64,000 nucleotides of DNA from Candidatus Omnitrophota bacterium (GCA_035368605.1 DAOSLF010000003.1:64889-128888), one strand, 5' to 3'; shown: positions 21,875-53,530, counted from the first letter of the stretch. Program-made: numbers and translations. The notes: generated by a model from the sequence alone, not told the origin.

Positions 21875-22025
21875 GGGGCGATACTAATAAAAGCTTTCGG
21901 TGTTTGCAAGCGTCTGAATGCCCGACCTCACGCGGGGACCTGGAAATCGCAAATACATTTGGTGAATGAGTCCCGGGAAACCGGTCCCGGATTTCGGGCG
22001 TCGGCAGGCAAGCATTGCACCCTGT

Positions 22026-24032: not shown

Positions 24033-24081
24033 AAAACGGGGTCAGTCACCGTTTTAGAGAAATGGTGACTGACCCCGTTTT
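24033..24081. repeat. Palindromic repeat copy 1 (bidirectional terminator-like hairpin)
   Basis: AAAACGGGGTCAGTCACC-GTTTTAGAGAA-ATGGTGACTGACCCCGTTTTT: a 14-bp perfect stem flanked by an A-run and a T-run, sitting between convergent genes. Confidence 0.85.
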
Positions 24082-24082
24082 T

Positions 24083-25000
24083 CTAGCCGCCGGACGAGGA
24101 ATTTCCGCTGTCGCTGCCATCATCACTGCCGCGACCGGCGGCGGGCGCCCCCGGCATCACGGGCTGCGGCAATGACATCATCCCTCCCTGCGTCGCGCGG
24201 TGGCCGTATTCCTCCATTTGCGACATGAGCGACAACGTCCGGGTCATATCATCAATATCTTTAGCGGACGCCCCAAAGGTCGCAGCGTTTGGAACCGTCG
24301 CGGCATAACCGTTCGAGGAAAGATTCAGTTCGTCCATCAGCCCGTTCAGATCCGCTTCAGGAACCCGGAAAACGGGCGCCGGCGTGGTACCGGGGCCTTC
24401 AATAACGGTCCCAAAACCAATCTGCGAAATCTCCACGCCGGCCTGGGCCCCGCCTATATCATTGGACACAAAAATGCGGCCCGGCGGCGTCACGTCATCC
24501 CCCGCCGGCCCCAAAAGCACAACGAGAGAGCGGAACCCTTCCGATCTGCCCGCCACCACGGTCCCGCGGATACCGATACTTCCGGCGGGAAGGCCCACGG
24601 ACATGTTTTCCGGTTTCTTGTGTGCGATCTTCCCCGAAATAAACCGGAACACGCCCCGGAGGATATCCGTGTTCAGGATTCCGTCCTGGGTCACCGGATC
24701 ATAAGCGAAGTCATCGAGCCTGATCGCACTCGACGGACCGAGTGTAAAAACAGTTTCATCCATCAGCAAAATCTGGAGTCGCCCGTCATCTTTTGTCACC
24801 ACCTGTTCATCGAGAAATACGGGATCTCCGGCTTTCAGCTCTTTCACGGTGCCGTCCGGTGACACAGACTCCGCCGCACCGTGAACCACACCGACCACTC
24901 CGACCTGTATTTCCTGAGCCAGCACCGGGGGCATGGCAAACAGCGCCGTCAGGATAGCCACAAAAACAAAGATCTGTCCCCGTCGTTCAAGGTTTGTCAT
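24083..25000 (-). CDS. Secreted FecR-domain protein (paralogue 1) with Gly/Ser/Asp-rich C-terminal tail
   Basis: Signal peptide FVFVAILTALFAMPPVLAQE. FecR-like beta core VKELKAGDPVFLDEQVVTKDDGRLQILLMDETVFTLGPSSAIRLDDF. It is paralogous to the next gene, with long colinear identity (e.g. FRFISGKIA+KKPENMSV LPAG IGIRGT VAG). Confidence 0.7.
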   Translation of the reverse strand: MTNLERRGQIFVFVAILTALFAMPPVLAQEIQVGVVGVVHGAAESVSPDGTVKELKAGDPVFLDEQVVTKDDGRLQILLMDETVFTLGPSSAIRLDDFAYDPVTQDGILNTDILRGVFRFISGKIAHKKPENMSVGLPAGSIGIRGTVVAGRSEGFRSLVVLLGPAGDDVTPPGRIFVSNDIGGAQAGVEISQIGFGTVIEGPGTTPAPVFRVPEADLNGLMDELNLSSNGYAATVPNAATFGASAKDIDDMTRTLSLMSQMEEYGHRATQGGMMSLPQPVMPGAPAAGRGSDDGSDSGNSSSGG

Positions 25001-25096
25001 TTTTTCGCCTCTCGTATAAAAAGGCATGACCGGTTTTTCACCGGATTCGTCTTCGTGAATATTGCTCATTTGGGCCGGAACCTGGAACCAGTCTGA

Positions 25097-26029
25097 TTAT
25101 GGGGTGGTCCCGGAGCCGGTCGAATTACTACTCCCGCCGGAATACTCTTCGTGCGAAGCCGCCTGCTGTGCCGCATCATCGGCCGCGTCCTGTGCCGCGG
25201 TCCGGGACTGCTGATTCAGATAATCCAGTGCCGTCAGACCATTCATGATGGCATCAAGATCCGGTGTCTCTGAACCTGAAGGGACGTCGCCGGCCGTATC
25301 GCCTCCGAGCGTTTCCGCGGCACCATCCGACTGCCCGCCCCGGCCAACCTGCTGCCCAAGCGCGTTCGCAAGCTTCATGAGATCCTGTGGCGGCACGAGG
25401 AACGGGTCGAGCGGCGCCACATTCGGTCCCCCGATCACCGTCCCGAACCCGCTTTGGCTGATATTCACCCCGACCAGCTGGCCGTTCACCGTGTTACTCA
25501 CGTTAATCGCGCCGGAGCTCTGTCCGTTCGGTCCGCCGAGCAGAACGACCAGGGATTGCTGCCCCTGGCTTTGGCCCGCGACGAACGTCCCGCGAATCCC
25601 GATATGCCCCGCGGGGAGATCGACCGACATATTCTCGGGCTTTTTGCGGGCGATCTTCCCCGAGATGAAACGGAACGCCCCGGTCACGATATCGGCGTTC
25701 AGCTTCCCTTCGTCGGTCTTCGGGTCATAAACAAACTCGTCAAGCTTGATGCTTGAAGACGCACCGATCGTGAAAACGGTCTGATCGACAAGAAGGATCT
25801 GCATCCTTGAATCCGGGCTTGTCGTGACCGTGTCGCCCCGGAAGAGCGGATCTCCGCCTTTCAGCACACGCGTTTCACCGGCCGAAGTGGTCGCTTTCAC
25901 CTCCCCGGTAATCCCCGCCGCGACACCGATTTTCGCCGAAGTATCCGGCAAGGCCGCGACCAAGCTGCCGCAAATCAAAAACCCCGCCACGCACAAACAA
26001 GCCACCAGACTCCACGATTTGTTTTTCAT
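25097..26029 (-). CDS. Secreted FecR-domain protein (paralogue 2)
   Basis: Signal peptide SLVACLCVAGFLICGSLVAALP. FecR-like core VLKGGDPLFRGDTVTTSPDSRMQILLVDQTVFTIGASSSIKLDEF. The C-terminus is Ser/Gly-rich. Confidence 0.7.
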   Translation of the reverse strand: MKNKSWSLVACLCVAGFLICGSLVAALPDTSAKIGVAAGITGEVKATTSAGETRVLKGGDPLFRGDTVTTSPDSRMQILLVDQTVFTIGASSSIKLDEFVYDPKTDEGKLNADIVTGAFRFISGKIARKKPENMSVDLPAGHIGIRGTFVAGQSQGQQSLVVLLGGPNGQSSGAINVSNTVNGQLVGVNISQSGFGTVIGGPNVAPLDPFLVPPQDLMKLANALGQQVGRGGQSDGAAETLGGDTAGDVPSGSETPDLDAIMNGLTALDYLNQQSRTAAQDAADDAAQQAASHEEYSGGSSNSTGSGTTP

Positions 26030-26288
26030 TTTCCCCTCTCCTCAGCTTCAAAACTGAACCAACGTTGGATTAGCAAAGAAAACGGAACCCGCTTCGCGCA
26101 TAGTATAGCTGCGGGGGATTGTTTGAGATAGATGAAAATTCCGCAGGACAACGCTTCCTCTTCAAGCAACCGGAACAAGATCTGAAGAGTTCTCAATGTC
26201 AACCGTCAACGGCAACGGGAGGCTGCGGCGCTTGAGCTAATTGACGGCGCGCGGGAGACATCGGGGCGTAACCCCGATTCCGATCTCC

Positions 26289-27716
26289 CTAGAATTCCCA
26301 GCGCTTGGTGAACAGGCCTTCAATCTTGTTATTCGTGTAGGCGTAATTCGTGATGTTGGAGAGCGAGCGGTAATACTCGTAGGAAAGTGTGAACACAATA
26401 TCCTCCATCTGCCTGGGGAGGATCCTGGAGAGAAAAGCGGAAAGCGGGGTCCCAACCGTCACGCGGTAGCGGAATATCTTATCGTGACGGAAACGGCTCG
26501 CGACATCCGTTTCGGGTTCGTTATAACGGTCGAAATAAAGGTTCGCGGCATTGATCAGGAACGAACCCCGCCAGAGCGCCCACGTGTGGATCAGGTTCAT
26601 ATTGAACCGGTCGTAGCCATTGAACCCGGACTTGGCGTTCTTGTTCATATAGCCGATGCTCGGCGTGATCCGCATCGTCGCGACCGGCGCGTACGTGACA
26701 CCCCACAGGTAATCATATTCCGGGCCTTTGCGCTGCGCCCCGGTCGTGTTCTCCGAGACGCCGGAATAATTCTGGTACTCGTAACGGAAGTTCATGAAAC
26801 CGTTCAGTTTTCTCGTGAGCTGGCGATCGAACTGAAGGTTCAGCCCCAGCGTCCGGAGGTAGGTTTCGCGGGAAAGCAGGATATTGCTCGCGATAAAGGA
26901 CGGCGAAATATTAACCCACTTGGTCTTGTACCGCCCGCCGATCTCCCCCTGGTAGGTGCTGAGGTCGAGCGAATCGACCATAGTCTGTTCCTGCAGGAAA
27001 TACGTAAAAGACCCGAAAATCTCGTGGCCGGCCCGCATGCCGAGGTCGTGCGTGAAGTCCACGGTCGTAATGTTCGTGAAGTGCGTGTCGTCGCGCTTGC
27101 GGTTCGTGCCTTCGAGACCTTGTGCCACATCGTTCACGAGCTGGAACTTGGAGGAAGGCGCCGCGTTGCGGTTCGTGTCATAGCCCCAGCCCACGGTCTC
27201 CCGGAGACCGAAATGCGTCCGGCGCTTGCGGCGTTCGATACGTTTCCTGTATTCCCTGACCTGTTCCTCGATGTTCTTCGGAAGCGGCATGCCCTTCAGG
27301 GTCTCGAGCTCTTTTTGGGCCTCATTGAGGTTATCGAGACGATACAGCACGACGGCATAAAGGAGGCGGACGTCCGCGAGATTCGGATTGACGAGGAGGA
27401 TCCGCTCGAGGGTGGCGGCCGAGCCGAGGAGCTCGTTGTTGGCGATCTGTTGCTGAGCGAACCGGAAGTTCAGCGGAAGGTTATCGGGATCCTTGAGGAT
27501 ATCTTCATAGGTCACGCCGGTCCGGTATTTTTTCTCCTCTTCGAGCTTTCCGGATTTTTCAGCGACAGCGGCGGAATATTTTTCCGAACGGAGTTCCCGC
27601 TCGACAGCCTTGACCTCCTGCCCGACATCTTCGGCACGGGCCTGCGTGACGGGGAAAAGAAACGGGAGGACGGTGAAAAAAGCAATGAGGACCGGAGCGA
27701 ATCTGGAAGCGCGCAT
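26289..27716 (-). CDS. Outer-membrane beta-barrel protein with N-terminal TPR-like domain (Slam/DUF560-like architecture)
   Basis: Signal peptide VLIAFFTVLPFLFPVTQARAED, a TPR-like helical N-terminal third, then alternating amphipathic beta-strands. The protein ends in a C-terminal Phe (KRWEF), the beta-barrel signature. Confidence 0.55.
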   Translation of the reverse strand: MRASRFAPVLIAFFTVLPFLFPVTQARAEDVGQEVKAVERELRSEKYSAAVAEKSGKLEEEKKYRTGVTYEDILKDPDNLPLNFRFAQQQIANNELLGSAATLERILLVNPNLADVRLLYAVVLYRLDNLNEAQKELETLKGMPLPKNIEEQVREYRKRIERRKRRTHFGLRETVGWGYDTNRNAAPSSKFQLVNDVAQGLEGTNRKRDDTHFTNITTVDFTHDLGMRAGHEIFGSFTYFLQEQTMVDSLDLSTYQGEIGGRYKTKWVNISPSFIASNILLSRETYLRTLGLNLQFDRQLTRKLNGFMNFRYEYQNYSGVSENTTGAQRKGPEYDYLWGVTYAPVATMRITPSIGYMNKNAKSGFNGYDRFNMNLIHTWALWRGSFLINAANLYFDRYNEPETDVASRFRHDKIFRYRVTVGTPLSAFLSRILPRQMEDIVFTLSYEYYRSLSNITNYAYTNNKIEGLFTKRWEF

Positions 27717-27871
27717 GAGAGCCCTTTCTTTAACGGGTTCGGATTTGTGACAGTGTACTATAGGAACACCCTAAAAATCAAAAAGAGATTACCGCTTCCT
27801 TTTTTAGCGTCCGCTATCCGGAAAACCGCTCCAAATAACGGCTTTGTCGCTTTTGAAATCAAGATATACTA

Positions 27872-29827
27872 GTGCCCATGGAATTCCAGCTTGATCCTTT
27901 CCAGCAGCAAGCCGTTGAGTGGATTGAAAAAGACCACTCTCTCCTCATTTCGGCCCCGACCGGTTCCGGCAAGACCCTCATCGCGGAAAAGGCCGTCGAA
28001 AAGGCCTTCGCTCAGGGGAAGGGCGTTATCTACACGGCCCCGATCAAAGCCCTGAGTAATCAGAAGTTCCGCGATTTCCAGCAGAGGTTCGGCGCGGCCA
28101 ATGTCGGCATCCTGACCGGCGACGTCGCGATCAACGCGGGCGCCCGGCTGCTCATCATGACGACCGAGATTTACCGGAACTCCCTTTTCGAGAACAGTGA
28201 GCGCATCCGGAGTACGGGTTGGGTCATTTTCGACGAGGTCCATTACCTGGATGACCACGAGCGCGGGACGGTCTGGGAGGAGGCCCTTCTTTTCACGCCG
28301 CCTGAGATCAGGATTCTCGCGCTCAGCGCGACTATTCCGAACGTGCGGGAACTTGCATCGTGGATGCAGATCGTGCATGACCGGCCGGTTGCGGTGATCG
28401 AAGAAACAAAACGGCCGGTTCCGCTCCATTTCTTCTACCAATGCCAGGGGCATTTCTTCACGAACCTGAAATCGCTGCGCAAGGACGGCTACTATTCCCG
28501 CGATAACTGGGAACTTTCCGTGCGTGAGCGGCGGCGCGGGTTCAAACAAATGCGCGCGAAACCGAACCGCCTGAGTGAACTGCTCGATCACCTGATCCGC
28601 GAGGACCGCCTCCCCGCTATTTATTTTGCCTTCAGCCGGAAACGCACGGTCTACCTCGCCTGGGAGATCGCGCACTACGACCTGCTGAACAAGGCCGAGC
28701 GCGCGAAAGTCACGGAACTCTTCGACGAACTCTGCAAAAAATACGACCTCGCGGAAGAACGCTCCGCGCAGGACATGAAACCCCTGATCGAACACGGCAT
28801 CGCCTACCACCACGCGGGCATGCTTCCAACGCTCAAGGAAGTGGTCGAACGCCTTTTCACGAGCCGCCTGATCAAGCTGATCTTCACAACCGAAACCTTC
28901 GCGCTCGGAATCAATATGCCGGCGCGAACGGTCATCTTCGACGAACTTGAAAAATTCTACGGGACGGGCTTCAAGGCCCTCACGACCCGCGATTTCTACC
29001 AGATGGCGGGTCGCGCGGGGCGACGGGGCATGGACGCGAAAGGGTTCGTCTATTGCCGCATCCTGCCGCATGACATCCCCTTCCCGCAGGTCGAGCGCAT
29101 CATTTTCGGCCATCCCGAACCCGTCCGCAGCCAGTTCAACGCCGCTTACGCGACCGTTCTCAACCTCTACCGTGATTTCGGGGAGGATCTCCTTGATGTT
29201 TATCCGAGGTCCTTCCATTATTTCCAGTCCTCGCGGCGAATGCGCGATGACGGTTTCGACCTGATCCGCAGCAAGCTGAATCTGTTAAAAGAGCTGGGAT
29301 ACATCCGCGACGGGAAACTTTCGGAAAAGGGGGAATTCGCGTCCTCAATTTTCGGCTATGAACTGTTGCTCACGGAAATGTACCAGGACAAGGTCTTCGA
29401 GAGCTTCGACGAGGCGCGGCTCAACGTATTCCTCGCGGGCCTCGTGTTTGAGCCCCGTAAAGGGCTTGATGAGCCGCCCAGGCTTTCGCATCAAAACGAA
29501 CAACTGCTCAAGGTCACCCAGCAGTACCACCGGAACATCCACAAAAAGGAGCGGGCCCACCGGATCCGCCCTTACACGAAGCCGCCGCATTTCCATCTCG
29601 CGAAGGCGATCGAGGCGTGGACACGGGGGGAAGCGTTCGACAAGGTCATGCGGGACACTTCGGAGGATGAAGGAACGCTGGTCCGTTATTTCCGGATGGT
29701 GACCCAGCTCCTGCGCGAGATCGAGCACGCGCCTCACGCCCCGGAGGCACTCCGTCAGATGGCATTGAGGGCGCGCGGGACGATCGATCGCGACGTCGTC
29801 GACGCAGAAAAACAGCTCCGGGCCTAA
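27872..29827 (+). CDS. Ski2-like superfamily-2 DEAD/DEAH-box helicase
   Basis: Walker A APTGSGKT, DEVH box (VIFDEVHYL), SAT motif (LSATIPN), and motif VI QMAGRAGRRG. Confidence 0.8.
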   Translation: MPMEFQLDPFQQQAVEWIEKDHSLLISAPTGSGKTLIAEKAVEKAFAQGKGVIYTAPIKALSNQKFRDFQQRFGAANVGILTGDVAINAGARLLIMTTEIYRNSLFENSERIRSTGWVIFDEVHYLDDHERGTVWEEALLFTPPEIRILALSATIPNVRELASWMQIVHDRPVAVIEETKRPVPLHFFYQCQGHFFTNLKSLRKDGYYSRDNWELSVRERRRGFKQMRAKPNRLSELLDHLIREDRLPAIYFAFSRKRTVYLAWEIAHYDLLNKAERAKVTELFDELCKKYDLAEERSAQDMKPLIEHGIAYHHAGMLPTLKEVVERLFTSRLIKLIFTTETFALGINMPARTVIFDELEKFYGTGFKALTTRDFYQMAGRAGRRGMDAKGFVYCRILPHDIPFPQVERIIFGHPEPVRSQFNAAYATVLNLYRDFGEDLLDVYPRSFHYFQSSRRMRDDGFDLIRSKLNLLKELGYIRDGKLSEKGEFASSIFGYELLLTEMYQDKVFESFDEARLNVFLAGLVFEPRKGLDEPPRLSHQNEQLLKVTQQYHRNIHKKERAHRIRPYTKPPHFHLAKAIEAWTRGEAFDKVMRDTSEDEGTLVRYFRMVTQLLREIEHAPHAPEALRQMALRARGTIDRDVVDAEKQLRA

Positions 29828-29875
29828 AAACGGGGTCAGTCACCATTTCCCTAAAATGGTGACTGACCCCGTTTC
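29826..29875. repeat. Palindromic repeat copy 2
   Basis: AAAACGGGGTCAGTCACC-ATTTCCCTAAAA-TGGTGACTGACCCCGTTT, between the convergent helicase gene and addB. Confidence 0.85.
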
Positions 29876-32800
29876 TTGTCTTCCTCGAGAATCTCCTGCA
29901 AGATAACGGGCAGACGCCACTTTTCGATCCGGCAGAGGGCGGGATAAGGACAGAATTTTTCGCAGTCCCGCGGACGGACAAGAATCTTCAGGTCCTTGAT
30001 CTCCACCGTGAACCGTTTCACGAACTCGACGGTCCGCGCGAGGACATGGCGGAAATCCGCGTCTTCGAGAAGCGCCACCTTGCTTGAAATACCGAGACTG
30101 AATTTCCCGGCCGACTCCTTACGGTAAAATCCGCTCCGCGAACCTTCCTTCAACGAATAGAGCTCGCCGCCCACGGGTTCCAGCTTGAGAAGTTCTTCCA
30201 CCGCCAACACATAGAGCGGCAGTTGCAGCGAGGTGCCGATCGCGAGGGCCTCGCGGTCCAGTTTCGCCGTTCGCTTGTAATCCACGACCAGGCCCGCCTT
30301 CCCTTCCCCATCCGTGTCGATCCGATCGATTCGGCCCCGAATCCGGATTTCCTTTTCGCCGTCCCGGATCCGGAACGCCGGAGACCGGTAGTCCTTTCCC
30401 GTCCCGAAACCGTATTCGACATACGCCGGACGGAGTTGGCGGACCGAAAGTTTCTCGATCTCCTTTTCGAGGACCGAAAGGAGCATCTCCTTCACGTCGG
30501 CCCGGTCCAGATCCTCCCGGAATTTCTGTTCCGCCGTGAGGGGGTATCTCTGAAAAGCCTCTTTCAGTTTTTCCTCGACAAACTTTTCAGGCGCCGCGTG
30601 GTGATTTCCCGTCCGGATGAAGTCTCGGAAATATTCCTCGAGCACCCAATGCAGGATGTTCCCCTTCTGCCGGGAAGTAATGTCTTCCGTCGGGTCCTGG
30701 AGATTGAGGATGTGATGCGCGAAATAACGGTAAGGACATTTCGCGAATTCCTCGAGGCGGGTCGGGCTGGCCTCTCCGACATCAAAAAAACCGCCGTTCC
30801 GGATTCCGGGGTCCCCGATCACGGCCTCGATGGGGGTGATCGCCCGCAGGAGCTTGTCGAGAGGAACGCGCGCGGGCGGACCTTCCGCGGGAATCTTGCC
30901 GCCGGACTCAACGCGCTCGCGTAACTCTCCGAGAAAAGCGACCTCGCGTTCGCGGCCCGTGATCGCCTCCTCCGCCCCGGGATAGGGCCTCGCGAGCTTC
31001 TGCTTCACGACGGGGACCTTCCCGTCAAAAAGCCTCTGGACCTCCTCGAGATAAAAGGACCGGAGCGATTCCTTGCCTTCGAGGTCGATGTGAGGGTACG
31101 AGAAATAAAGGCGCTCGCTCGCCCGCGTCACGGCGAGGTAGAAAAGATATCGCTCAAGACTCTGCCGGGGCAGGCGTTCCTGCAACGGGTGTTCGAGCCC
31201 TGCGTTCATGATCGCGCGTTCCCAGTCCGAAAGAAGCGGATCCTCGCGAATCTGCACGGGAAAAACCCGCTCGAGCATCCCGGCCACGAAAACAACTCGG
31301 TATTCTTTTTGACGAGCAAGCGACACGTCGTAGATCTGGACCCGGTTCTTGTCGCGCTCGTGGAGTGAATACACATCGAGTTCGACAAGCCCGAGGAACT
31401 GATCGGCGAAGGAATCGAACAAAACGGCGTGCGCGCCGACTCTGGAGGCGTTCATCCGGATCTCTTCAAGCAGTGTCGTGAAACGCCGCGCGGCCGAGGC
31501 GTCGCTCCGCGTGAACGGCGTGTAATCGTCCGAGATTTCGAGGATGCCGAAGGTGTGGCCGACCGCGTGCGTGAGAAGACGGATATGATCGGCCGCGGTT
31601 TCCGCCGCGAGAAAAGCGGCCTCTAGCTCAAGCAGGACCCCGAGGAATTTGTCCTTGCCCGCCCCTCCGTTCTCCGCAAGCGCCGTCTCATTAACCCAGG
31701 GGGCTGTCCACGCTTCGCGGCCTTCGAGGACACCGTTCTCGAAGCTCCCCGCCTCGAATTTCGAGAGCCAGTCGTTGTCCCTCGCGAGATCGCCGAATTT
31801 CCGCACGTATCCGGATTTGACGAACGCGAGAACATCCTCCCGTCTCCAACCGTTCCGGAATATCGAAAGAAGCGCCGCCACCGCACCGATCCAGGGCGAG
31901 AGCTTGAGGCGGTCGCGTTCATGGACCTCGACCGGAATCCCGTAGCGTTCGAAGATCGGGGGAACAACCCGTCCGTAATCGCGGACCTGACGAAACAGCA
32001 CCGCGAAATCGCTGTAACGGTAGTTCCCCGACGCGTAAAGCCCGTGGATCTCGCGTGCGATCAGCTCGATCTCGCCTTCGATTCCGACTGCATCAAGAAA
32101 AGTGATCCCCTCCGGGGGTCTGGCTCCGTTGCGGTCCCCTGAAATGGTGCCTGACCCCGTTTTTATATTTTGGCCGAACAGATTCCGCTGAAGATGTAAA
32201 AGCGCCGGTTCCCTCGTCCGGTGACAAACGGGTTTCATCTTTTCCACCTTGAAACCGGCTTCCTCGAGCATCGCACGGGTGGAACGGATGGTCTCGAAAG
32301 CGTCCTCACGAACCGGGCCCTCTTCCGCCGTCAGTGTCACGATCATCTCATCCGACAGGGCGGCGAGTGCCCGGACATATTCGGCCTGGAGGTTGGAGAA
32401 ATCGAAAAAGCCATCGAGCCAGAGCGCTTTGAACCGGACCGGCGGCTGCCCGCCTTTGCGGGTCCGCTCCCGCCAGATCCGGAGCGTGTCCTGGAGATCC
32501 CTGAGACCGCGCTCCTTCAGCTCCGACTCATATCCTTCATAGACCGCGGCAAGCGCCTCGTATTTGGGGCCGAAGGCTGGTTCATATTTTTTGAGGGCGT
32601 TCATCCTCTCGCGGAATTCCGCGGGCGTCACGCAGGCTTCCTTGAGCTCCGAAATCCCGCCCAGGAGAAGTCCGACGAATCCCGGCAGGTCTTTCACGTC
32701 CCGAAAATATTCCCAGTCGTTCTTGCCGAGGAGATCGCGGACGATAATGGCCCGCGTAAGGCTTGAAACGACCGGAATCTCCGGGACCCGGAAGACATCG

Positions 32801-33021
32801 GTGATAAGGCGGGAAAGGGTCGTGACGCGTTTATGAAAAAAACCCGGAAGTCCCCGCTGGATGAGGAGTGAAACCACCCGTTCGGTGTGCTCGGCAGAGG
32901 GGACGATCAGGAAAGTGTCGGGCTCGAGCGGATTCGACGTCCGGAGGCTTTTTTCGAAGGCCTCCAGCAACGCGCGGGTCTTCCCGCATCCCGCCGGGCC
33001 GATCAGGAGAGTCTTCGTCAT
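29851..33021 (-). CDS. addB: AddB-type helicase-nuclease subunit B (inactive-helicase/PD-(D/E)XK nuclease, Fe-S)
   Basis: 1056 aa. N-terminal Walker A GPAGCGKT, C-terminal nuclease motif VVDYKRT, and a Cys cluster (CPYRYF ... CEKFCPYPALC) as in AddB Fe-S staples. Confidence 0.7.
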   Translation of the reverse strand: MTKTLLIGPAGCGKTRALLEAFEKSLRTSNPLEPDTFLIVPSAEHTERVVSLLIQRGLPGFFHKRVTTLSRLITDVFRVPEIPVVSSLTRAIIVRDLLGKNDWEYFRDVKDLPGFVGLLLGGISELKEACVTPAEFRERMNALKKYEPAFGPKYEALAAVYEGYESELKERGLRDLQDTLRIWRERTRKGGQPPVRFKALWLDGFFDFSNLQAEYVRALAALSDEMIVTLTAEEGPVREDAFETIRSTRAMLEEAGFKVEKMKPVCHRTREPALLHLQRNLFGQNIKTGSGTISGDRNGARPPEGITFLDAVGIEGEIELIAREIHGLYASGNYRYSDFAVLFRQVRDYGRVVPPIFERYGIPVEVHERDRLKLSPWIGAVAALLSIFRNGWRREDVLAFVKSGYVRKFGDLARDNDWLSKFEAGSFENGVLEGREAWTAPWVNETALAENGGAGKDKFLGVLLELEAAFLAAETAADHIRLLTHAVGHTFGILEISDDYTPFTRSDASAARRFTTLLEEIRMNASRVGAHAVLFDSFADQFLGLVELDVYSLHERDKNRVQIYDVSLARQKEYRVVFVAGMLERVFPVQIREDPLLSDWERAIMNAGLEHPLQERLPRQSLERYLFYLAVTRASERLYFSYPHIDLEGKESLRSFYLEEVQRLFDGKVPVVKQKLARPYPGAEEAITGREREVAFLGELRERVESGGKIPAEGPPARVPLDKLLRAITPIEAVIGDPGIRNGGFFDVGEASPTRLEEFAKCPYRYFAHHILNLQDPTEDITSRQKGNILHWVLEEYFRDFIRTGNHHAAPEKFVEEKLKEAFQRYPLTAEQKFREDLDRADVKEMLLSVLEKEIEKLSVRQLRPAYVEYGFGTGKDYRSPAFRIRDGEKEIRIRGRIDRIDTDGEGKAGLVVDYKRTAKLDREALAIGTSLQLPLYVLAVEELLKLEPVGGELYSLKEGSRSGFYRKESAGKFSLGISSKVALLEDADFRHVLARTVEFVKRFTVEIKDLKILVRPRDCEKFCPYPALCRIEKWRLPVILQEILEEDKKRGQSPF
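32111..32166. repeat. Diverged copy of the palindromic repeat, embedded in frame inside addB
   Basis: CGGGGGTCTGGCTCC-GTTGCGGTCCCCTGAAA-TGGTGCCTGACCCCGTTTT aligns to the intergenic repeat. The right arm has 1 mismatch; the left arm has 3 mismatches and 1 indel. It encodes the AddB segment NIKTGSGTISGDRNGARPPEG. Confidence 0.6.
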
Positions 33022-37939: not shown

Positions 37940-38026
37940 AAACGGTCTGAACTGCCGGGACGGAATCAGCGGTCACATTCGTCGACATCGGGGTCACCTC
38001 GCGAAGTTGTCCCGCAGCCGCTTGTG

Positions 38027-38290
38027 TCAAAGATGAAATTTATCCTTCTTGCGCTCCAGCGTGCGATGAAACCTGTCCTCAACATCGGCGAGCGCTTCCT
38101 TGAGCGCCGAAAAAATCTTCGCCACCTGGTCGCCGTTATAGGAATACTGGGACGTCGCGAGGTTGCCGATCAAACGGATCTTGTCGAGCGTCGCCGCGAC
38201 CCGCTGCTCCGCGAGACGCCTGAACCGTTCTTCTTTTGTTTCCCCGGGCCGGCTTCCGGCGGTTTCATCGGGATTCCCTGTGTTTTCCAC
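38027..38290 (-). CDS. Small acidic hypothetical protein
   Basis: 87-aa ORF in an otherwise unassigned gap between htpX and a HAD hydrolase. Supported by coding potential only. Confidence 0.35.
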   Translation of the reverse strand: MENTGNPDETAGSRPGETKEERFRRLAEQRVAATLDKIRLIGNLATSQYSYNGDQVAKIFSALKEALADVEDRFHRTLERKKDKFHL

Positions 38291-38315
38291 GACACTCTCC
38301 TTTTGTTTTTTTCGG

Positions 38316-38936
38316 TCAGAAACGGACCTTCAGTTTCCGGAGTGCTTTTTTGAGGCGGTCGGGACCGCGAAAGCGGATAGCGTGCATCCCGGCCTTACGC
38401 GCCCCGGCAACGAAACTTTTCATATCGTCGATAAAGACGGTCTCTTCGGGCCTGAGACCGATCTTCTTCAGGACACGCCGGTAAATCTTGAGGTCGGGCT
38501 TGCGGGCCCCCACCTCATGGGACGGGAACATCCGACAAAAATGCCTCAGGATCCGGAATTCTTTCTTGATGTGCGTGAAATGAAGCGCGTTCGTGTTCGA
38601 GATGAGATAAAGCGGATAATGCTTCCCGATCCTCGCGAGCAATTTGTCCATGCCGGGGTTTTCCCAGAAGATGTCATTCCAGTAACGTTTGAAGGTCATG
38701 AACGGGACCGGCTTTTTAAAGACCCGGCAGGCCTCCCGGTAGAATTCCCGGGTCGAGATCTCCCCCCGCGTGTAGGCCTGTTCGAATCTGGAAAGAAAAA
38801 AGTGCGCCCAGATCCGCGCCTGGGAGATGCCGCCCGCCTCGGAGAAGCGACGTGCGGCTTTTTTAACGTCATAATTCACGAGGACGTTGCCAAGATCGAA
38901 GATCACAGCCTTGATTTCAGGGGGTTTCTTTTTCAT
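38316..38936 (-). CDS. HAD-family hydrolase
   Basis: Motif I AVIFDLGNVLV, a conserved S/T in ISNTN, and motif IV VFIDDMKSFV. The start is the internal Met MKKKPPEIK. Confidence 0.7.
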   Translation of the reverse strand: MKKKPPEIKAVIFDLGNVLVNYDVKKAARRFSEAGGISQARIWAHFFLSRFEQAYTRGEISTREFYREACRVFKKPVPFMTFKRYWNDIFWENPGMDKLLARIGKHYPLYLISNTNALHFTHIKKEFRILRHFCRMFPSHEVGARKPDLKIYRRVLKKIGLRPEETVFIDDMKSFVAGARKAGMHAIRFRGPDRLKKALRKLKVRF

Positions 38937-38989
38937 GGGCAAAGGATTGTAACATCGCAAGCCACCCGCCACAAGACACACGACTCGGT

Positions 38990-39351
38990 TTTATACGGGA
39001 GCGTATCCCGCCACGGCAGTCCGCAAATACTCGCGATACTTGTCCATTCATCGGTTGCCCTCTGTGCAGTTGCTTGTTTTTCGAAAACACAATCCACCAG
39101 ATTTCCCGGGATAATCTTTTTTTCTTACCCTTTATCCCTTCACTAGTTACAGCTTTTTATCAGCACTAAGCACTAAAGAACAACTATCTTTTTTAAAAAC
39201 TATAAAATGATTAAAAAAATAATAATAAATAAATCTATGCTATGTCTTGCTTCTTTTTGCGTGTTGCATTTAATCCAGAAACAAATTACAATTATAGCAG
39301 GGTCGACATGAACTAATAGCGTCTTGGCGGAAGGAGCGAGGAGAAAAACAA
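38990..39351 (+). promoter_or_regulatory. Very AT-rich (~25-30 % GC) leader upstream of the pseudopilin operon; probable promoter region and left boundary of the island
   Basis: Runs such as aaaaactataaaatgattaaaaaaataataataaataaatct, in a genome that is otherwise >60 % GC. I did not recognise a sigma-54 or other specific consensus. Confidence 0.3.
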
Positions 39352-39771
39352 ATGGGACCTCTTCCTGACAAACGTGGTTTTCGAGGGTTCACGCTCATCG
39401 AGGTAATGGTTGCCTTGTTCGTGACCACAATTGCCATTGCGGGATATGTCGGATCTAACATTGCGACCCAACGACAGGCCGCAGAGTTACATGAGCGAAC
39501 CATCGCAGTACAAGAGGCTCAGCGTGTCATTGAACAAATGCGTGATAAAGCCAGAACAAACAATTTTCCCGGAGATGTCGTGGCCGCCTTCCCTGATGGC
39601 GGAACCGTTGCCGGAATGAATGCCCTGCCCGATGAACGGGTTCAGGTCGATTATGTAAATCCGGCGGCTACTCCTCTGGATACCACTGTCACCGTGACAT
39701 GGCAATCCTACACCTCCCGCCGGCAAACGGCGGCCCTGAGGGCTTATATTGCAAAGAGGAAAACGCCATGA
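39352..39771 (+). CDS. Type IV pilin-like minor pseudopilin (prepilin-type N-terminal cleavage/methylation domain)
   Basis: Leader MGPLPDKRGFRG followed by FTLIEVMVALFV: G-1, F+1, E+5 and a hydrophobic helix. 139 aa. Confidence 0.75.
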   Translation: MGPLPDKRGFRGFTLIEVMVALFVTTIAIAGYVGSNIATQRQAAELHERTIAVQEAQRVIEQMRDKARTNNFPGDVVAAFPDGGTVAGMNALPDERVQVDYVNPAATPLDTTVTVTWQSYTSRRQTAALRAYIAKRKTP

Positions 39772-40316
39772 GAAAACTCACATCACAAAAAGGATTTAAT
39801 CTCATGGAAGCGATGCTCGCCGTGGCGCTGTCCAGCATTGTGGTTTTCGGAGTCTTTTTGCTTTTTCGGGTCGGCAGCGAACAATCTCAAATAAACCAGT
39901 CCCTCATGGATCTCAAAGACTCCTCTCGCGAAGCCATTTATAAAATGGTCCAGGAGATTCGCCAATCTGCTCCCGGTCACGTGATCATTGAAGCCAACGG
40001 TCAGTCAATCCGTTTTAAAATTCCTCATCCGGATCACTTGACAGGTCCTGGTTTTGACGTCGACTGGGATTCCGCACACACCATCACCTACGCTCTCGGC
40101 GGGGCTAACTCCCGGCAAATCATACGAACCGATACCACAACCGGGATGACCTCCATCATCGCCAACGATATCACGGCTCTGCGGTTCTCTGAAAATTCCT
40201 CGCCGTCCAGGATTGTGACGATAACTTTAAATGCCCAGAAAACGCCACCCGGCGGGCGAGCGGTTCCATCCACTCCCCTGCAAATAACGGCTCAAGCGGA
40301 TGTGAGAAACCCATGA
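39768..40316 (+). CDS. Type IV pilin-like minor pseudopilin (GspJ/PilW-like size)
   Basis: Leader MRKLTSQKG followed by FNLMEAMLAVALSSIVVFGV (E+5). Its start codon overlaps the previous stop (ATGA). Confidence 0.75.
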   Translation: MRKLTSQKGFNLMEAMLAVALSSIVVFGVFLLFRVGSEQSQINQSLMDLKDSSREAIYKMVQEIRQSAPGHVIIEANGQSIRFKIPHPDHLTGPGFDVDWDSAHTITYALGGANSRQIIRTDTTTGMTSIIANDITALRFSENSSPSRIVTITLNAQKTPPGGRAVPSTPLQITAQADVRNP

Positions 40317-41521
40317 AAACTCATCCTTTCTCCCAAATCGGAAATCAGAGGGGGTTCGTATTGACTGTGGTTTATCTTATCCTCGCGCTCGTAGCCGTTT
40401 TTTCGGTCGCTTATTTCTCCCGCTGCGTTGCATTTGTCCAGGCTAATGAGCGCAATATTCACAAAACCGTGGCATTTAACATGGCTGAATCGGGCATTGA
40501 TTGGGCCATCAGCCAGTTAGCATCAAACACCGAATACACCGGAACCTCCGCCTACGTCCCCCTGGACACCGATTACATGAGGGGCGGATTCACGGTCTCG
40601 GTCATCACGGATGACTCCGATCCCAAAATCCGGATTATCCGGGCAAGCGGATTCGCCCCTTCCAATGACCCTACCCAGCGAGGGTATCAAACATCAAGTC
40701 TTCTTGCTTACGTTCAATCCGGATCCAGTAGCGCTTTTCGCGCCGGAATTTTCGCGACAGATTCCATTCAAATGTCGGGAAACGCCCAAACGGACTCTTA
40801 CGACTCTCGGAACGGGGCTTATGGTGGAAGCAATGTCGCCTATAACGGTGGCATTGAGACCAATACAACGGGCCCCCAGGAAGTCACGCTAAGTGGAAAC
40901 GTCATGATCCAGGGGGGCATCACCGTCGGCCCGACAGAATCGCCCTCTTCGGTGGTATCAGTACGCGGCAATGCCATGATTACGGGAAGTATTTTATCCA
41001 ATTCGGCTCCCGTCACCTTCTCTGATGCCGTGGCTCCGGTCAGCGCGAGCGGCGAGCTCAAAATCAGCGGAAACACAACGTACTATCTCATGCCCGGAAC
41101 CTATCACTTTACGTCCATGAGTATAACGGGAAACGCCAAACTTGTTCCGACCGGCCCCGTGTCCATTTATGTCGATGGAACTATCAAGATAGCGGGAAAC
41201 GGTATCGCAACTGCCGACAACCGTCCACCCAACCTTCTCCTGTATGCGACCGGCAACTCAAGCGTAAGTTTTTCCGGAAACGCGTCTTTCTACGGAGCTA
41301 TCTACGCGCCGAACTCGACCGTCTCCGTATCCGGGAACGGCAGATGCTATGGGGCCATTATTGCCAAAGATTATAAAAATACGGGAAATGGCCAGATCCA
41401 TTTTGACGAAGCGTTGAAAGAAATCCAGGGCGGCAGCTCCGGCGGAATAACCATCCTGGCCTGGCAAGAACAAAACACCCTGCTGTGGGGAACGGGAACA
41501 GCGGCAGATACGGAAACCTGA
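40313..41521 (+). CDS. PilX/GspK-like tip pseudopilin lacking Glu+5, with periodic SGN-repeat (predicted beta-helix) domain
   Basis: N-terminus QRGFVLTVVYLILALVAVFS has a prepilin-like hydrophobic helix with no E+5, as in GspK/PilX. An (S/T/A/R)GN motif recurs every ~20-25 aa (SGNAQ, SGNVM, RGNAM, SGNTT, TGNAK, AGNGI, SGNAS, SGNGR, TGNGQ). The start is ATGA-coupled to the upstream gene. Confidence 0.6.
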   Translation: MKTHPFSQIGNQRGFVLTVVYLILALVAVFSVAYFSRCVAFVQANERNIHKTVAFNMAESGIDWAISQLASNTEYTGTSAYVPLDTDYMRGGFTVSVITDDSDPKIRIIRASGFAPSNDPTQRGYQTSSLLAYVQSGSSSAFRAGIFATDSIQMSGNAQTDSYDSRNGAYGGSNVAYNGGIETNTTGPQEVTLSGNVMIQGGITVGPTESPSSVVSVRGNAMITGSILSNSAPVTFSDAVAPVSASGELKISGNTTYYLMPGTYHFTSMSITGNAKLVPTGPVSIYVDGTIKIAGNGIATADNRPPNLLLYATGNSSVSFSGNASFYGAIYAPNSTVSVSGNGRCYGAIIAKDYKNTGNGQIHFDEALKEIQGGSSGGITILAWQEQNTLLWGTGTAADTET

Positions 41522-42081
41522 CGGAACTTGGCGAAGGATGTTTAGAACGCAGGGGTTGAAAATCTTTATCCTCCAAACCCCGAACCCGCTCCCCGTCGCG
41601 TCTCTTCCCTCGCGCACAATTCCGGAATCTGCAAAACCCCCGGTATTGAAGGTAAGCCACGCCCAAATATTTCTTTTGGGTTGAGTTATCCTTGACAAGC
41701 TCCGCTGGTGAAGTCGTGCGTTCTTGTATACCCATCTCCCCCCCCCGCAACCTTTTCCATCGGGATGGAAGGGTCCCCCTTGTGATCACGGCAGACCTCA
41801 CTTCGGGAACAATCCCGGGAACGACCGTCATATCCGTCCGAAAGGGCCGAGGCCGGCTCCCGGACGCGCGCCAGATTCTTGCGGGGGCTTTTTGATCACG
41901 GACAATCTCATGACGGACTGGTGTTTCTCCCCTCTTGAAGTTATACTGGCGCGAGTTCATCCCGATTTCGACAAGGGAATCGTCCGGCGGCCAAAAACGT
42001 TTTTCTTTATTTCAAAACCCGCACGATCAAGATCCAATAATCGCGCGAACCGCGCCCAACGAAAGGCATTGTCCCGAATCC

Positions 42082-48015: not shown

Positions 48016-49782
48016 TTATTCCCTTCCGATCTCCAGCTCAACACAGGTGCGATTGCGTCCTTCCGTCTTGGCCCGATAAAGCGCTTCATCGGCCCTGTGC
48101 ACCATCATGTCAGGCACCGTCTCTCCCGGCCGGAGGGTTGCGACGCCCAGGCTGATCGTCAGAGGGATGACCTTATCCTCGTGAATAAAAACTTCCTGCT
48201 CGACCCGTTTCCTCAGTTTCTCTCCAAAACCAAACGCGGTTTCGACAAGCGTGCATCCCCGGAGCATGATGATGAACTCTTCCCCGCCGTAACGTCCGAC
48301 GACGTATTTCCCTTTTTTCTTTTTCTCTTCGGGAAAAATCTCCTGCATGATCTGGGCCAGTTTTTTGAGCACCGCATCTCCCGCCAGGTGGCCATGAGTA
48401 TCATTGATGGTCTTGAAGCGGTCAAGGTCCAAAAGGATGATGGAGAGCGCGGTCTGTTTCTTGCAGGCTTCGACAACGGCGCTGTTAAGAAGCACGCGGA
48501 AATGGCGGATCACATAAAGTCCGGTCAGGCCATCGCGGGTGGCAAGCGCGAAGAGCCGCTCCTGTTCGCGACGTCCGACCGTCATCGAGAAAATAGACGA
48601 AAAAACAAAAAGCGAGAAGATCAAAAGAAGGGGGTTCAGGACGAAAACCCACATCCCCCGGCTGACGAACATCGCGAAGGCCGTCGCAACCCACACACCC
48701 CCCCACGCAAGCCCCGCCACGAACGAAATGATCTGCCGGAAGAAAATAAAGGTCGCCGACGCAAAAAGTCCGACCATCAGAAGGCAAAGAAGGTTCGCGC
48801 GGCGGGAGGCGGGATAAACAAACTGCTTCGTCAGGATGCTGTTCATGAGATTCGTCTGAACACCCACAGCCGGATAGGTCTCCTCCAGCGGATTGGCTTT
48901 GATATCCGTCAGACCAACCGCGGTGAGACCCACAATGCAGATCTTTCCTTTGACATCCTGGGGGGTAATGGCGGATTTCCCGCCCTGTTTCAGGACGCTG
49001 TAACTTTTGACCAGATCCACAAAAGAGATATGGCGAAAGGTGTCCTTCCATTTTCCGGCCCAGTTGATCACGATCTTCCCCTCTCCATCGGTCCGGAATG
49101 GCAACTTCCCCTCGGGGAGCGGCTGGCCCAGGTAATCATAGGCCACCCTCAACGCGAGATACGGATGTTCCTCCCCGCCGTAATCGAGATAAGGGATAAC
49201 GCGCCGCAGCGCGCCGTCCGGGTCCGGGAAAATATTGACATGCCCAGTCCCTTTCGCGAACTTCTCAAATTCCGGGAGGGAATGGATCCACACTCTTTCA
49301 TTGCCGAGCGGCTCAAGCATATTCGGCAGGTAGATGTTGTCAGATTCCTTCAAGGCCTCCAGAAGCGATTCATCGTCGAACGTGGTGCTCGGTTCGCTGA
49401 AGATCACGTCAAAGACGATCGCCTTTGCGCCCCACTCCTTGAGGATGCGGATCAGGGCGGCATGGTTGTGCCGGGCCCAGGGCCACCGGCCGATCACGCG
49501 AAGGCTGTCCTCGGCCATGTCGATATGCACGATCGCGGGATGCTGATAGATCGGAGGTCTTTGGCGGAAGAAAAAATCCAAGAACACGTACTCGAACCGG
49601 TTCATGAGAGGCGACGACATGAGCATCGTATGAACGCCGATGATCAAAAGACAAAACAGGAAATGGACTGCGTGAAGCCGGAAAGCGGTGCTGAAATAGA
49701 AACTGATCTCCCGCTGCTTTCTCCGAAAAAAGCTTCCCGGATGCTGCACAAGCCCCGAGGGCGGATTTTTCATTGTACCCAT
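48016..49782 (-). CDS. CHASE2-sensor diguanylate cyclase (GGDEF)
   Basis: N-terminal TM, CHASE2 region (IVHIDMAEDSLRVIGRWPWAR), a cluster of TM helices, and the GGDEF core RDGLTGLYVIRHF ... LDLDRFKTINDTHGH ... RYGGEEFIIML. Confidence 0.85.
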   Translation of the reverse strand: MGTMKNPPSGLVQHPGSFFRRKQREISFYFSTAFRLHAVHFLFCLLIIGVHTMLMSSPLMNRFEYVFLDFFFRQRPPIYQHPAIVHIDMAEDSLRVIGRWPWARHNHAALIRILKEWGAKAIVFDVIFSEPSTTFDDESLLEALKESDNIYLPNMLEPLGNERVWIHSLPEFEKFAKGTGHVNIFPDPDGALRRVIPYLDYGGEEHPYLALRVAYDYLGQPLPEGKLPFRTDGEGKIVINWAGKWKDTFRHISFVDLVKSYSVLKQGGKSAITPQDVKGKICIVGLTAVGLTDIKANPLEETYPAVGVQTNLMNSILTKQFVYPASRRANLLCLLMVGLFASATFIFFRQIISFVAGLAWGGVWVATAFAMFVSRGMWVFVLNPLLLIFSLFVFSSIFSMTVGRREQERLFALATRDGLTGLYVIRHFRVLLNSAVVEACKKQTALSIILLDLDRFKTINDTHGHLAGDAVLKKLAQIMQEIFPEEKKKKGKYVVGRYGGEEFIIMLRGCTLVETAFGFGEKLRKRVEQEVFIHEDKVIPLTISLGVATLRPGETVPDMMVHRADEALYRAKTEGRNRTCVELEIGRE

Positions 49783-52092: not shown

Positions 52093-52944
52093 TTATGCGC
52101 CGGTTTTCACGGACGGTCCCTCTTCCTTTTTCGGACCCGCGACCTTGACCGCGAAGAACAGATAACCCAGATTGATCAAGAAGACAACCACCACGGGAAT
52201 GGGGATCGAGCGCAAGAACGGCAACATGTTAAACCAGGTGACCGTAAATCCGGTACTCATGGAAAAACAGGACAGGTTGAAGAGGGCCCCATAGCCGAGA
52301 TCGCTTTTCCGGATCGAGTCGAAAACAAGCGCCGCGATGGAATGCAAAAGCGCCAATACAATGAAGAACAGGTATAATCCGACCAGGAGCACGCCCAGCA
52401 GCATCGGTGCCATCACAGACCGGAGATTGTTGTAGAACTTGAGAACAACATCACCGGTAATGCGGACACGCTTCGGAAGCTCGCTGCCCGGCCGAGGTGT
52501 CGTTTTGAGGCTTCGGACTTCGACACCGTCCTTCGCCGCGGCGTTCCTGGCGTAAAACTTATCCGCCGTAACAAAGGCATAAGCGTCCCCCATATCTTCG
52601 ACCCTGACCGGCTCGATCCTTTTTGTGTCAATGATCGCGATCGCGCCAAACTCGGGATGTTCCAAAAGAAACGGTTGGGGTGTTTGATCGCTTTCCATCG
52701 ACAACCCCGCTTCGGGGGTCCAGATCATCGGCGGAAGATTTTCACCCATCCACTTGGCGAAGCCATCCGCTTTCGGCATCAGAGTGGCGCCCAAAGCGAC
52801 GGCAGCTACAAGGACAACGAGACCGGTAAGATAGAGTTGATAAAGGAGCCCGCGCGCGGGCGAACTCTTGGCGGCATTGCGATAGACCGCCGGCATAAAG
52901 AACGCGGTCAAGGGAGCGGCGAAAAAGGTCAGGACTTTATCCAT
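52093..52944 (-). CDS. Hypothetical polytopic membrane protein
   Basis: 283 aa with TM helices at both ends and a central soluble segment. I recognised no family. Confidence 0.45.
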   Translation of the reverse strand: MDKVLTFFAAPLTAFFMPAVYRNAAKSSPARGLLYQLYLTGLVVLVAAVALGATLMPKADGFAKWMGENLPPMIWTPEAGLSMESDQTPQPFLLEHPEFGAIAIIDTKRIEPVRVEDMGDAYAFVTADKFYARNAAAKDGVEVRSLKTTPRPGSELPKRVRITGDVVLKFYNNLRSVMAPMLLGVLLVGLYLFFIVLALLHSIAALVFDSIRKSDLGYGALFNLSCFSMSTGFTVTWFNMLPFLRSIPIPVVVVFLINLGYLFFAVKVAGPKKEEGPSVKTGA

Positions 52945-53413
52945 AGGTAATCTCCATGATTTTGAGTTTGATCGTTCTGGCGGGAGCCTGGATGGCCGCC
53001 TCTTCGTTCAGGACTTTCCCCAGCAGACCTTTCCCGATCGGCGAGGTGACCGAAATCTTGCCCTCATCAAAATTGGCCTCGTCCTGGGGAACCAGCGTGT
53101 ACCGGAAAATTTCCTTGTTGTCGAGGTCCTGGACCTTGACCGTGGCGCCGAGATAAACCTTGTCCTTCGGGATGTCGTTCAGGTCCACGACCCTCGCGTG
53201 CGCGATCTTCCGCTCAAGCTCCCCGATCCGGATCTCAAGCTGGTGCTTGGCTTCTTTGGCGGTTTCGTATTCCGCGTTCTCGCTCAGATCCCCGAATGCC
53301 CGGGCCTTCTCAAGCTGGTCCGCGACCTCGCGGCGTTTCGTGGTCTTGAGGGCGTTGAGGTCCTCAATCATTTTTTCGTAGCCCTGCCTGGTGACAATCA
53401 CTTTTTCCGACAT
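52937..53413 (-). CDS. greA: Transcription elongation factor GreA
   Basis: Starts MSEKVIVTRQGYEKMIEDL and contains DLSENAEYETAKE (acidic coiled-coil tip) plus the C-terminal FKBP-like domain. 158 aa; start taken at the internal Met. Confidence 0.85.
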   Translation of the reverse strand: MSEKVIVTRQGYEKMIEDLNALKTTKRREVADQLEKARAFGDLSENAEYETAKEAKHQLEIRIGELERKIAHARVVDLNDIPKDKVYLGATVKVQDLDNKEIFRYTLVPQDEANFDEGKISVTSPIGKGLLGKVLNEEAAIQAPARTIKLKIMEITYG

Positions 53414-53530
53414 AATCCACTCCGCCGGAGATGTTTTTCCGCTTTGAAGTCGAAACCGTCCATTGTTCGAGAATTCCTGGCTACACCGTCGATACGCCCG
53501 CAAAAACCATCCCGTCCGCCCTCCGGATTC

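Follow-up and report, generated by a model that had tools for sequence, protein, structure and literature searches.

The locus analyzed here raises a simple question: what kind of protein begins like a pilin, continues into a long domain studded with a recurrent SGN-like motif, and ends a small gene cassette, and what would such a protein do for the cell that makes it? The gene lies in a 64-kb window, the whole stretch of Candidatus Omnitrophota DNA that we analyzed, and its product, which we call the cap, is identical to a protein deposited as a hypothetical protein from a Candidatus Omnitrophota MAG. We approach the question through the genes that accompany the cap, the sequence and predicted structure of its domains, the family to which it belongs, and the recurrence of its cassette in other genomes.

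RESULTS

The cap gene closes a cassette of minor prepilins

The cap gene stands last in a cassette of three translationally coupled genes, in which a PilV/GspI-like and a PilW/GspJ-like gene precede it (Table 1), both partners being assigned from sub-threshold matches together with position. The first matches Pfam N_methyl above threshold (E=7.5e-8), and its NCBIfam matches, all under the curated cut-offs, are to PilV (2.5e-7), XpsI (9.3e-7, nearly full length), and GspI (1.6e-5). The second, for which public gene calls place the start at 39768, has two NCBIfam matches, both below cut-off, to the PRK10557 prepilin peptidase-dependent protein (E=7.5e-7) and to IV_pilin_GFxxxE (0.033), and its stop and the cap gene's start share nucleotides (ATGA). 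The cassette has no fourth minor pilin of the FimU/GspH kind. The tract upstream of the cassette is AT-rich, and GGAGCGAGGAG precedes the ATG at 39352; a sigma-70 consensus scan of this upstream region returned no site on the plus strand.

Table 1. Features of the cassette and of the cap protein, in positions of the window; a slash within a residue string marks the cleavage point
Positions	Strand	Feature	Basis
39100..39351	+	AT-rich intergenic region, probable promoter and ribosome-binding region (inferred)	read from sequence
39352..39771	+	minor prepilin 1, PilV/GspI-like, 139 aa, RG/FTLIEV (Glu5 present)	Pfam N_methyl
39765..40316	+	minor prepilin 2, PilW/GspJ-like by position and size, 182-183 aa, KG/FNLMEA (Glu5 present)	motif by regex
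40313..41521	+	cap minor pilin (PilX/GspK class) with beta-solenoid domain	ORF of 402 aa
40313..40525	+	cap alpha-1 region, residues 1-71: short leader, predicted cleavage after Gly14, hydrophobic-to-amphipathic helix	model helix 10-71
40526..40729	+	cap pilin head beta-sheet, residues 72-139	DSSP of model: strands 92-99, 106-115, 126-136
40730..41428	+	cap beta-solenoid (DUF7305 / pAdhesive_15), residues 140-372, ~9-10 coils	short strands 146-365, Foldseek
41429..41518	+	cap linker, final strand, and disordered tail, residues 373-402	DSSP strand 379-387

The N-terminus of the cap, ...NQRG/FVLTVVYLILALVAVFSVAYF, takes the form of a class III signal, with a leader that ends in Gly and a hydrophobic segment behind it; written onward from the predicted cleavage it reads ...NQRG/FVLTVVYLILAL. 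Prepilin cleavage is predicted after Gly14 (QRG/FVLTV), a residue at least 90% conserved among cap relatives, and position +5 is held by Val rather than Glu. None of the 65 relatives in our alignment has Glu at +5. Absence of Glu5 is a hallmark of PilX/GspK-type caps. The same point is restated in a recent study of cyanobacterial pili (bioRxiv 10.64898/2026.02.12.705559). The cap gave no match at E<=1 to the N_methyl and GFxxxE models (PF07963, TIGR02532), which both upstream prepilins match; this is the expected outcome for a cap type that lacks Glu5. It does not reach PilX_N (PF14341), and the GspK equivalog (NF037980) aligns with the N-terminal helix only (residues 12-74, E=1.7e-5), at 24.5 bits against a cut-off of 130. 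Judged by its sequence, the cap resembles a PilX/GspK-class tip pilin, an assignment already suggested in a preliminary description of this DNA and supported here by the Gly-Phe site, the missing Glu5, and the two prepilin genes directly upstream.

A conserved corner motif marks a predicted beta-solenoid

The same description had reported nine (S/T/A/R)-G-N motifs in this open reading frame, and all nine are present, far above chance, and kept in relatives. They fall at cap residues 155, 194, 218, 252, 272, 294, 321, 340, and 357, and a tenth, ATGNSS, falls at residue 313. The cap contains 11 GN dipeptides, against 2.9 +/- 1.6 in 20,000 composition-preserving shuffles of the protein, not one of which reached 11. 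A longer pattern, hydrophobic-x-hydrophobic-[STAR]-G-N, which was composed post hoc, once the data had been seen, occurs 9 times in the cap, whereas shuffled versions of the solenoid region contain it 0.08 times on average and never more than twice. Across the 65-member alignment, the nine motifs retain their G in 34 to 62 sequences and their N in 35 to 54, along with the flanking hydrophobic positions; ATGNSS shows no conservation in that alignment and is probably incidental.

The proposed recurrence of the motif every 20 to 25 residues holds only in part. Recurrence itself exceeds the shuffles, but successive motifs are separated by 39, 24, 34, 20, 22, 27, 19, and 17 residues (range, 17-39), so that the spacing is approximate, the longer gaps holding loops or a motif-less coil. 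A profile self-alignment of the cap family, which served as a stand-in for HHrepID, gave a single off-diagonal match, and a weak one (E=0.0019, probability 14%), and we therefore reject a sequence repeat of whole units and retain the corner motif alone. A weak self-alignment together with a kept motif points to a structural repeat that is degenerate, keeping a single conserved motif at the corner, rather than to cleanly repeating sequence.

The predicted structure gives the motif its place. An AlphaFold2 model built from the 65-sequence alignment has a mean pLDDT of 89.9 (at least 90 for 305 residues) and was used instead of a poor single-sequence model (pLDDT, 56.8), which was set aside. The N-terminal helix and globular region that had been read from the sequence reappear in it as a helix at residues 10-71 and a beta-sheet at residues 92-136. 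The solenoid that follows is built of strands of 3 to 5 residues each, spanning residues 146-365 (about 220 residues). All nine motifs start exactly one residue past the end of a predicted strand, so that in the model the motif forms the turn at one and the same corner from coil to coil; its role there is structural. The final strand has a pLDDT of ~84 over residues 381-390 and includes Trp384, invariant in the family alignment; by analogy with ComZ, a solenoid-bearing pilin compared with the cap below, it probably pairs back with the pilin sheet.

Searched against the PDB with Foldseek, the model finds ComZ (6qvi) as its best match (E=5.7e-7, probability 1.0), in an alignment that runs along the whole chain and through both domains, at an overall TM-score that is low (0.28). 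More than 20 structures of DUF3494-type ice-binding proteins follow, at target-normalized TM-scores of 0.5 to 0.63. The model and these matches, to ComZ and to ice-binding solenoids, uphold the suggestion that the periodicity reflects a beta-solenoid, and they support a fold of the triangular, ice-binding-protein type. The particular folds that had been suggested fared less well: pectate-lyase-like, bactofilin, and PilY1 structures are all absent from the 50 best PDB matches, as are other enzymatic beta-helices. We rejected the pectate-lyase-like, bactofilin-like, and PilY-like readings; the bactofilin HMM matches 2 of 65 relatives at E ~0.005 and not the cap itself. Sequence searches did not recover ComZ 6qvi, whether the family profile was run against the PDB at E<=1 or the single sequence at E<=10, and a search of the PDB with the family profile and all three cassette proteins returned noise only.

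The cap belongs to a named and very large family

The preliminary description could place the protein in no named family by eye. Profile searches can: the cap matches Pfam DUF7305 (PF23981) in two stretches at 80.6 bits (E=1.8e-22; gathering threshold, 27) and pAdhesive_15, or choice-of-anchor A (PF20597), at 34.8 bits (E=2.2e-8; threshold, 23.8), the second match running over cap residues 147-364 and positions 28-254 of the 254-position profile. With a profile of the cap family as query, 32,420 cluster representatives (clusters at 50% identity) are recovered at E<=1e-3, a number that falls to 3,019 at E<=1e-30; most of the 150 best matches align across nearly the whole profile. The Pfam matches and a family of tens of thousands thus make the cap placeable in a named and very large family. 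A 90%-identical NCBI protein is already labelled "DUF7305 domain-containing protein," and some cap relatives carry the JGI annotation "Tfp pilus assembly protein PilX." DUF7305 is found in all 65 aligned relatives, PilX_N in 4, and pAdhesive_15 in 22, the last count making that relationship peripheral. The description of pAdhesive_15 calls it a putative adhesive domain of ice-binding-like type; its members often are surface proteins other than pilins, BA_0871 of B. anthracis and the trail adhesins of diatoms among them. NCBIfam adhesin models gave no match to the cap at E<=1, and a literature search on DUF7305 found no papers.

Within the family, conservation is greatest in the solenoid (mean pairwise identity, 41%) and least in the pilin head (28%). 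The most conserved block is DSYDSRNGAY at residues 161-170, and DSYDS..G.Y is near-invariant across the family. The solenoid of the cap is acidic (pI 5.2), as are those of most relatives, with a family median pI of 4.3 and net charge of -11; only 7 of 65 carry a net positive charge.

The cassette recurs across the Omnitrophota

A genome scan for cassette loci, with 18 closer cap relatives as the query, returned 15 loci: 12 titled Omnitrophota or Omnitrophica, 1 from Candidatus Taenariivivens baikalensis, and 2 titled "uncultured bacterium," which match the cap at 84% and 38% identity. The order prepilin-prepilin-cap, with overlapping stop and start codons, is kept in every well-matched locus (L001-L020). 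A further locus (L021), at the end of a contig, has two caps and nothing upstream of them, and one partial cap match comes from an Elusimicrobiota locus. Caps also occur in tandem, two in some loci and three in one (L011). One genome, UR.bin134, has two separate cassettes.

In the 64-kb window, the neighbors of the cassette are housekeeping genes. The window contains no pilus or secretion assembly genes (PilB/C/D/M-Q, Gsp), no major pilin, no prepilin peptidase gene, and neither a second cap copy nor any other pilin-like gene beyond the cassette. Type IVa pili are reported to be common across the Omnitrophota (PMC10066038).

DISCUSSION

A probable distal subunit of a type IV filament tip complex

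The fold, the family membership, the absence of Glu5, and the conserved cassette, all computed here, lead us to consider it likely, with a probability of roughly 0.7, that the cap is the distal PilX/GspK-class subunit of a type IV filament tip complex and that its solenoid provides a contact surface. The composition best supported for this complex is a minimal PilV-PilW-PilX-like (equivalently, GspI-J-K-like) priming unit. The mechanism we envisage is modelled on the GspI-J-K, PilVWX, and ComZ precedents, from which we infer the tip location, the priming role, the adhesive or plug function, and the nature of the ligand. The cap would be co-transcribed and translationally coupled with its PilV/GspI-like and PilW/GspJ-like partners and cut by prepilin peptidase after Gly14; the three N-terminal helices would then associate as a bundle within the inner membrane, where they would prime the assembly of the filament, and major pilins would polymerize below the cap. 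We propose that a subunit that lacks Glu5 and bears so bulky a domain could occupy only the very tip. There the solenoid would most likely act as a terminal plug and as a contact surface toward surfaces, polysaccharide, or partner and host cells, and would replace a PilY1-type tip protein. Because the solenoid is more conserved than the head, a plug or a conserved ligand fits better than a diversifying adhesin. Its conservation and acidity lean, though not decisively, toward a conserved module for plugging or contact, and speak slightly against a DNA receptor of the ComZ kind. Weighing against the tip-complex reading as a whole are the lack of assembly genes and of a major pilin in the 64-kb window, the missing fourth minor pilin, scores of the cap that do not reach the N_methyl, PilX_N, and GspK models, the low overall TM-score to ComZ, and the absence of sequence-level similarity to PDB chains.

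That DNA receptor is an alternative in its own right, in which the cap would be the tip of a competence pilus, with a solenoid that binds extracellular DNA for natural transformation. ComZ, the top structural match, does bind DNA, alone and with the adjacent pilin PilA2 (PMC6561018), and one cyanobacterial PilX subfamily is tied to competence (bioRxiv 10.64898/2026.02.12.705559). The cap, however, has no detectable sequence similarity to ComZ, its solenoid is acidic, as are those of most relatives, and no competence genes were seen in the 64-kb window. This contrary evidence is weak, since ComZ itself has no obvious positive patch (PMC6561018), and we regard the DNA receptor as improbable overall.

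A low probability also attaches to the proposal that the three genes are the equivalents of GspI, GspJ, and GspK, so that the solenoid would sit at the end of a short pseudopilus in the periplasm, which drives substrates through the secretin of a type II secretion system. The I-J-K gene order is identical, the weak NCBIfam matches include GspI, XpsI, and the GspK N-terminus, and the pilin domain of ComZ is nearest to GspK (PMC6561018). Against this, the Gsp-type matches fall far under the curated cut-offs, the alpha-helical insert of GspK is absent from the cap, no GspH-like or gsp genes lie nearby, and some cap relatives have PilX_N matches or PilX names. Type IVa pili, moreover, are the system reported to be common in the phylum (PMC10066038).

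We find it very unlikely that the cap works outside any filament, as a membrane-anchored surface adhesin whose N-terminal helix would merely be the signal anchor for a solenoid of the choice-of-anchor-A type. Such a role would suit the occurrence of pAdhesive_15 on non-pilin surface proteins such as BA_0871 and the diatom trail adhesins, and the failure of the cap to match N_methyl models. It fits poorly with the conserved Gly-Phe cleavage-type site, with the pilin-like head sheet predicted in the model, with a ComZ match that spans both domains, and with a translational coupling to two prepilin genes that is strict in all well-matched loci. Two further roles, that of an ice-binding (antifreeze) protein and that of a beta-helical enzyme, for example a pectate-lyase-like depolymerase of glycans, are scarcely credible: the DUF3494-like fold (target-normalized TM up to 0.63) recalls the former, but the Pfam ice-binding families are unmatched, the long FfIBP-type helix is absent in DSSP, and the same fold occurs in non-ice-binders, namely, the thermophile protein ComZ (PMC6561018) and diatom adhesins, while no enzymatic beta-helix is among the 50 best PDB matches.

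Implications

The gain is mainly one of annotation. Read as a filament tip subunit, a "hypothetical protein" from an uncultured Omnitrophota genome would become the cap in a tip complex of minor pilins, and DUF7305 the solenoid module of PilX/ComZ-type caps. This reading would also support the view that caps with solenoids are widespread and an alternative to tip proteins of the PilY1 type. The Omnitrophota are mostly ultra-small, putatively host-dependent bacteria. A tip ligand in this phylum would bear on how these tiny cells attach to their partners. It is conceivable, though we think it unlikely, that the orphan cassettes of the Omnitrophota are interchangeable pilus-tip kits, with several cassettes possible per genome and one to three alternative caps in tandem per cassette; each cap would offer a different contact surface for attachment to host or prey cells, and the DSYDS..G.Y block would form a shared ligand or metal site. 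Were this true, the phylum would possess its own tip-switching system, which goes beyond one more PilX.

Comparison with known systems

The closest known counterpart of the cap is ComZ of Thermus thermophilus (PDB 6QVI; Salleh et al. 2019), a pilin resembling GspK into which a solenoid like that of ice-binding proteins is inserted, and for which a tip location was argued on steric grounds, as it fits the filament tip only (PMC6561018). Its pilin domain is closest to GspK, and PilA2, the adjacent pilin with which it binds DNA, is also bound (PMC6561018). Like the cap, ComZ unites in one chain a GspK-like pilin module and a large triangular beta-solenoid of the ice-binding-protein type, and like the cap gene, its gene adjoins those of other minor pilins. 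The ComZ solenoid lies as an insertion in the pilin fold, after the penultimate and before the last strand (PMC6561018), a topology with which the order predicted for the cap, sheet, solenoid, and last strand, is consistent. The preliminary description had pictured a solenoid stalk fused to a pilin helix; the solenoid stands, but in the precedents it is inserted into the pilin fold and not appended to it. The two proteins differ in that sequence similarity between them is not detectable, and in that the solenoid, ~380 residues long in ComZ, is shorter (~230), more regular, and acidic in the cap, which belongs to a three-gene cassette as opposed to the pilA1-3/comZ arrangement.

The type II secretion and type IV pilus complexes GspI-J-K and PilV-W-X offer a comparison at the level of the pilin module. 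GspK and PilX lack Glu5, as the cap does, and stand last in an ordered cassette, and GspK resembles the cap in the N-terminal helix. In GspK, by contrast, the sheet is interrupted elsewhere, by an alpha-helical insert (PMC6561018), and the PilX of proteobacteria is a small protein without a solenoid (bioRxiv 10.64898/2026.02.12.705559). For the solenoid, the comparison is with DUF3494 ice-binding proteins (FfIBP, 4NU2; ColAFP, 3WP9), which share the triangular beta-solenoid fold at 10 to 15% identity but have no pilin module; in FfIBP a long helix packs on the solenoid, and the model of the cap has no long helix in residues 140-372. Nothing in the cap leads us to expect that it binds ice. DUF7305 and pAdhesive_15, whose thresholds the cap exceeds, are domain families without assigned function.

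The cyanobacterial PilX proteins bring the two modules together once more. Every PilX homologue of cyanobacteria is reported to bear this insert, in the position it has in ComZ, the insert is proposed to replace PilY1 as a tip plug or adhesin, and the proteins co-occur with a dedicated PilV partner (bioRxiv 10.64898/2026.02.12.705559). They include PilX-Com and PilX-EPS, and genetic support exists for their cassettes and for a functional split between competence and motility (bioRxiv 10.64898/2026.02.12.705559). Our likening of them to the cap draws on that published description and on the PilX identity of some cap relatives, seen in PilX_N matches and PilX annotations. They belong to another phylum, and the genetic support is on the cyanobacterial side, whereas the Omnitrophota systems are known from their genes. 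The architecture of the cap, which had at first seemed unusual, is thus already known: the same design has been solved in ComZ (PMC6561018), is described for cyanobacterial PilX (bioRxiv 10.64898/2026.02.12.705559), so that two other phyla are represented, and has entries in Pfam.

Cap genes in related loci

The cap gene, which encodes the PilX/GspK-class minor pilin with the beta-solenoid, stands alone in the window, whereas it occurs as two or three tandem paralogues in some of the related loci fetched for comparison. Locus comparison revealed that the two prepilin genes are followed by two tandem cap paralogues in the related Omnitrophota loci L001, L010, L017, and L020 and that L011 carries three. 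L021, where the caps sit at a contig end with nothing upstream, also has two. These tandem paralogues share about 28 to 54% identity with the window cap, and they may represent alternative pilus tips. The second cap copy of a further related locus (L008:7281-8452) matches as two pieces, 7281-7520 and 7514-8452, that overlap by a few bases, and this split suggests a frameshift, so that the copy would be a pseudogene or else misassembled.

The three-gene cassette is also found twice within a single genome, MAG UR.bin134, at separate places (L009, contig JAKJDL010000006.1; L012, contig JAKJDL010000001.1), and the caps encoded there share 88% and 48% identity with the window protein. Since UR.bin134 carries two cassettes, the genome from which the window derives may, by analogy, harbor others elsewhere. 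Over the window's own cassette and the intergenic region upstream (38001-42000), GC content falls to 0.51 to 0.54, against about 0.57 to 0.60 on both sides, the stretch from about 39100 to 39340 being very AT-rich.

The conserved block of the cap

Positioned at the beginning of the solenoid, the DSYDSRNGAY block is the most highly conserved of any block across the entire cap family, with D161 and S165 invariant and S162, Y163, G168, and Y170 conserved in at least 90% of sequences. It may cap the solenoid or else serve to bind a ligand or a metal.

Features of the window and of related loci (L coordinates run within each locus)
Feature	Location	Strand	Remark
CHASE2-adenylate/guanylate cyclase gene	window 21966-24032	+	
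FecR-domain gene	window 24083-25069	-	first of two consecutive
FecR-domain gene	window 25097-26029	-	second of two consecutive
ORF without Pfam match	window 26241-27872	+	543 aa; overlapped by 26289-27716 (-)
ORF without Pfam match	window 27869-29218	-	
DEAD/DSHCT helicase gene	window 27872-29827	+	
DSYDSRNGAY	window 40793-40822		cap residues 161-170
CHASE2-GGDEF gene	window about 48016-49773	-	
ORF without Pfam match	window 59367-59882		
ORF without Pfam match	window 62293-62793		
ORF without Pfam match	window 63156-63689		
Tandem caps	L001:6748-9254		
Tandem caps	L010:6001-8502		
Tandem caps	L011:3646-7191		three paralogues
Tandem caps	L017:6001-8553		
Tandem caps	L020:6001-8817		
Tandem caps	L021:4-1601		

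Other genes of the window

No Pfam match at E ≤ 1e-5 was found for several sizeable window ORFs, some of which may be noncoding shadows of opposite-strand genes; the DEAD/DSHCT helicase gene is an example of such an opposite-strand gene. The CHASE2-cyclase gene adjoins the FecR-domain pair on the opposite strand (21966-26029); this arrangement and the CHASE2-GGDEF gene suggest several CHASE2-type signaling modules in the window. Two GreA/GreB-family genes lie within 9 kb (52937-53503 and 61751-62302), the match of the second being confined to the C-terminal domain. AddA-like and AddB-like genes, the former combining a UvrD helicase with a PD-(D/E)XK nuclease, occupy 11585-14908 and 29851-33021 on the same strand, about 15 kb apart; AddA and AddB genes are usually adjacent.
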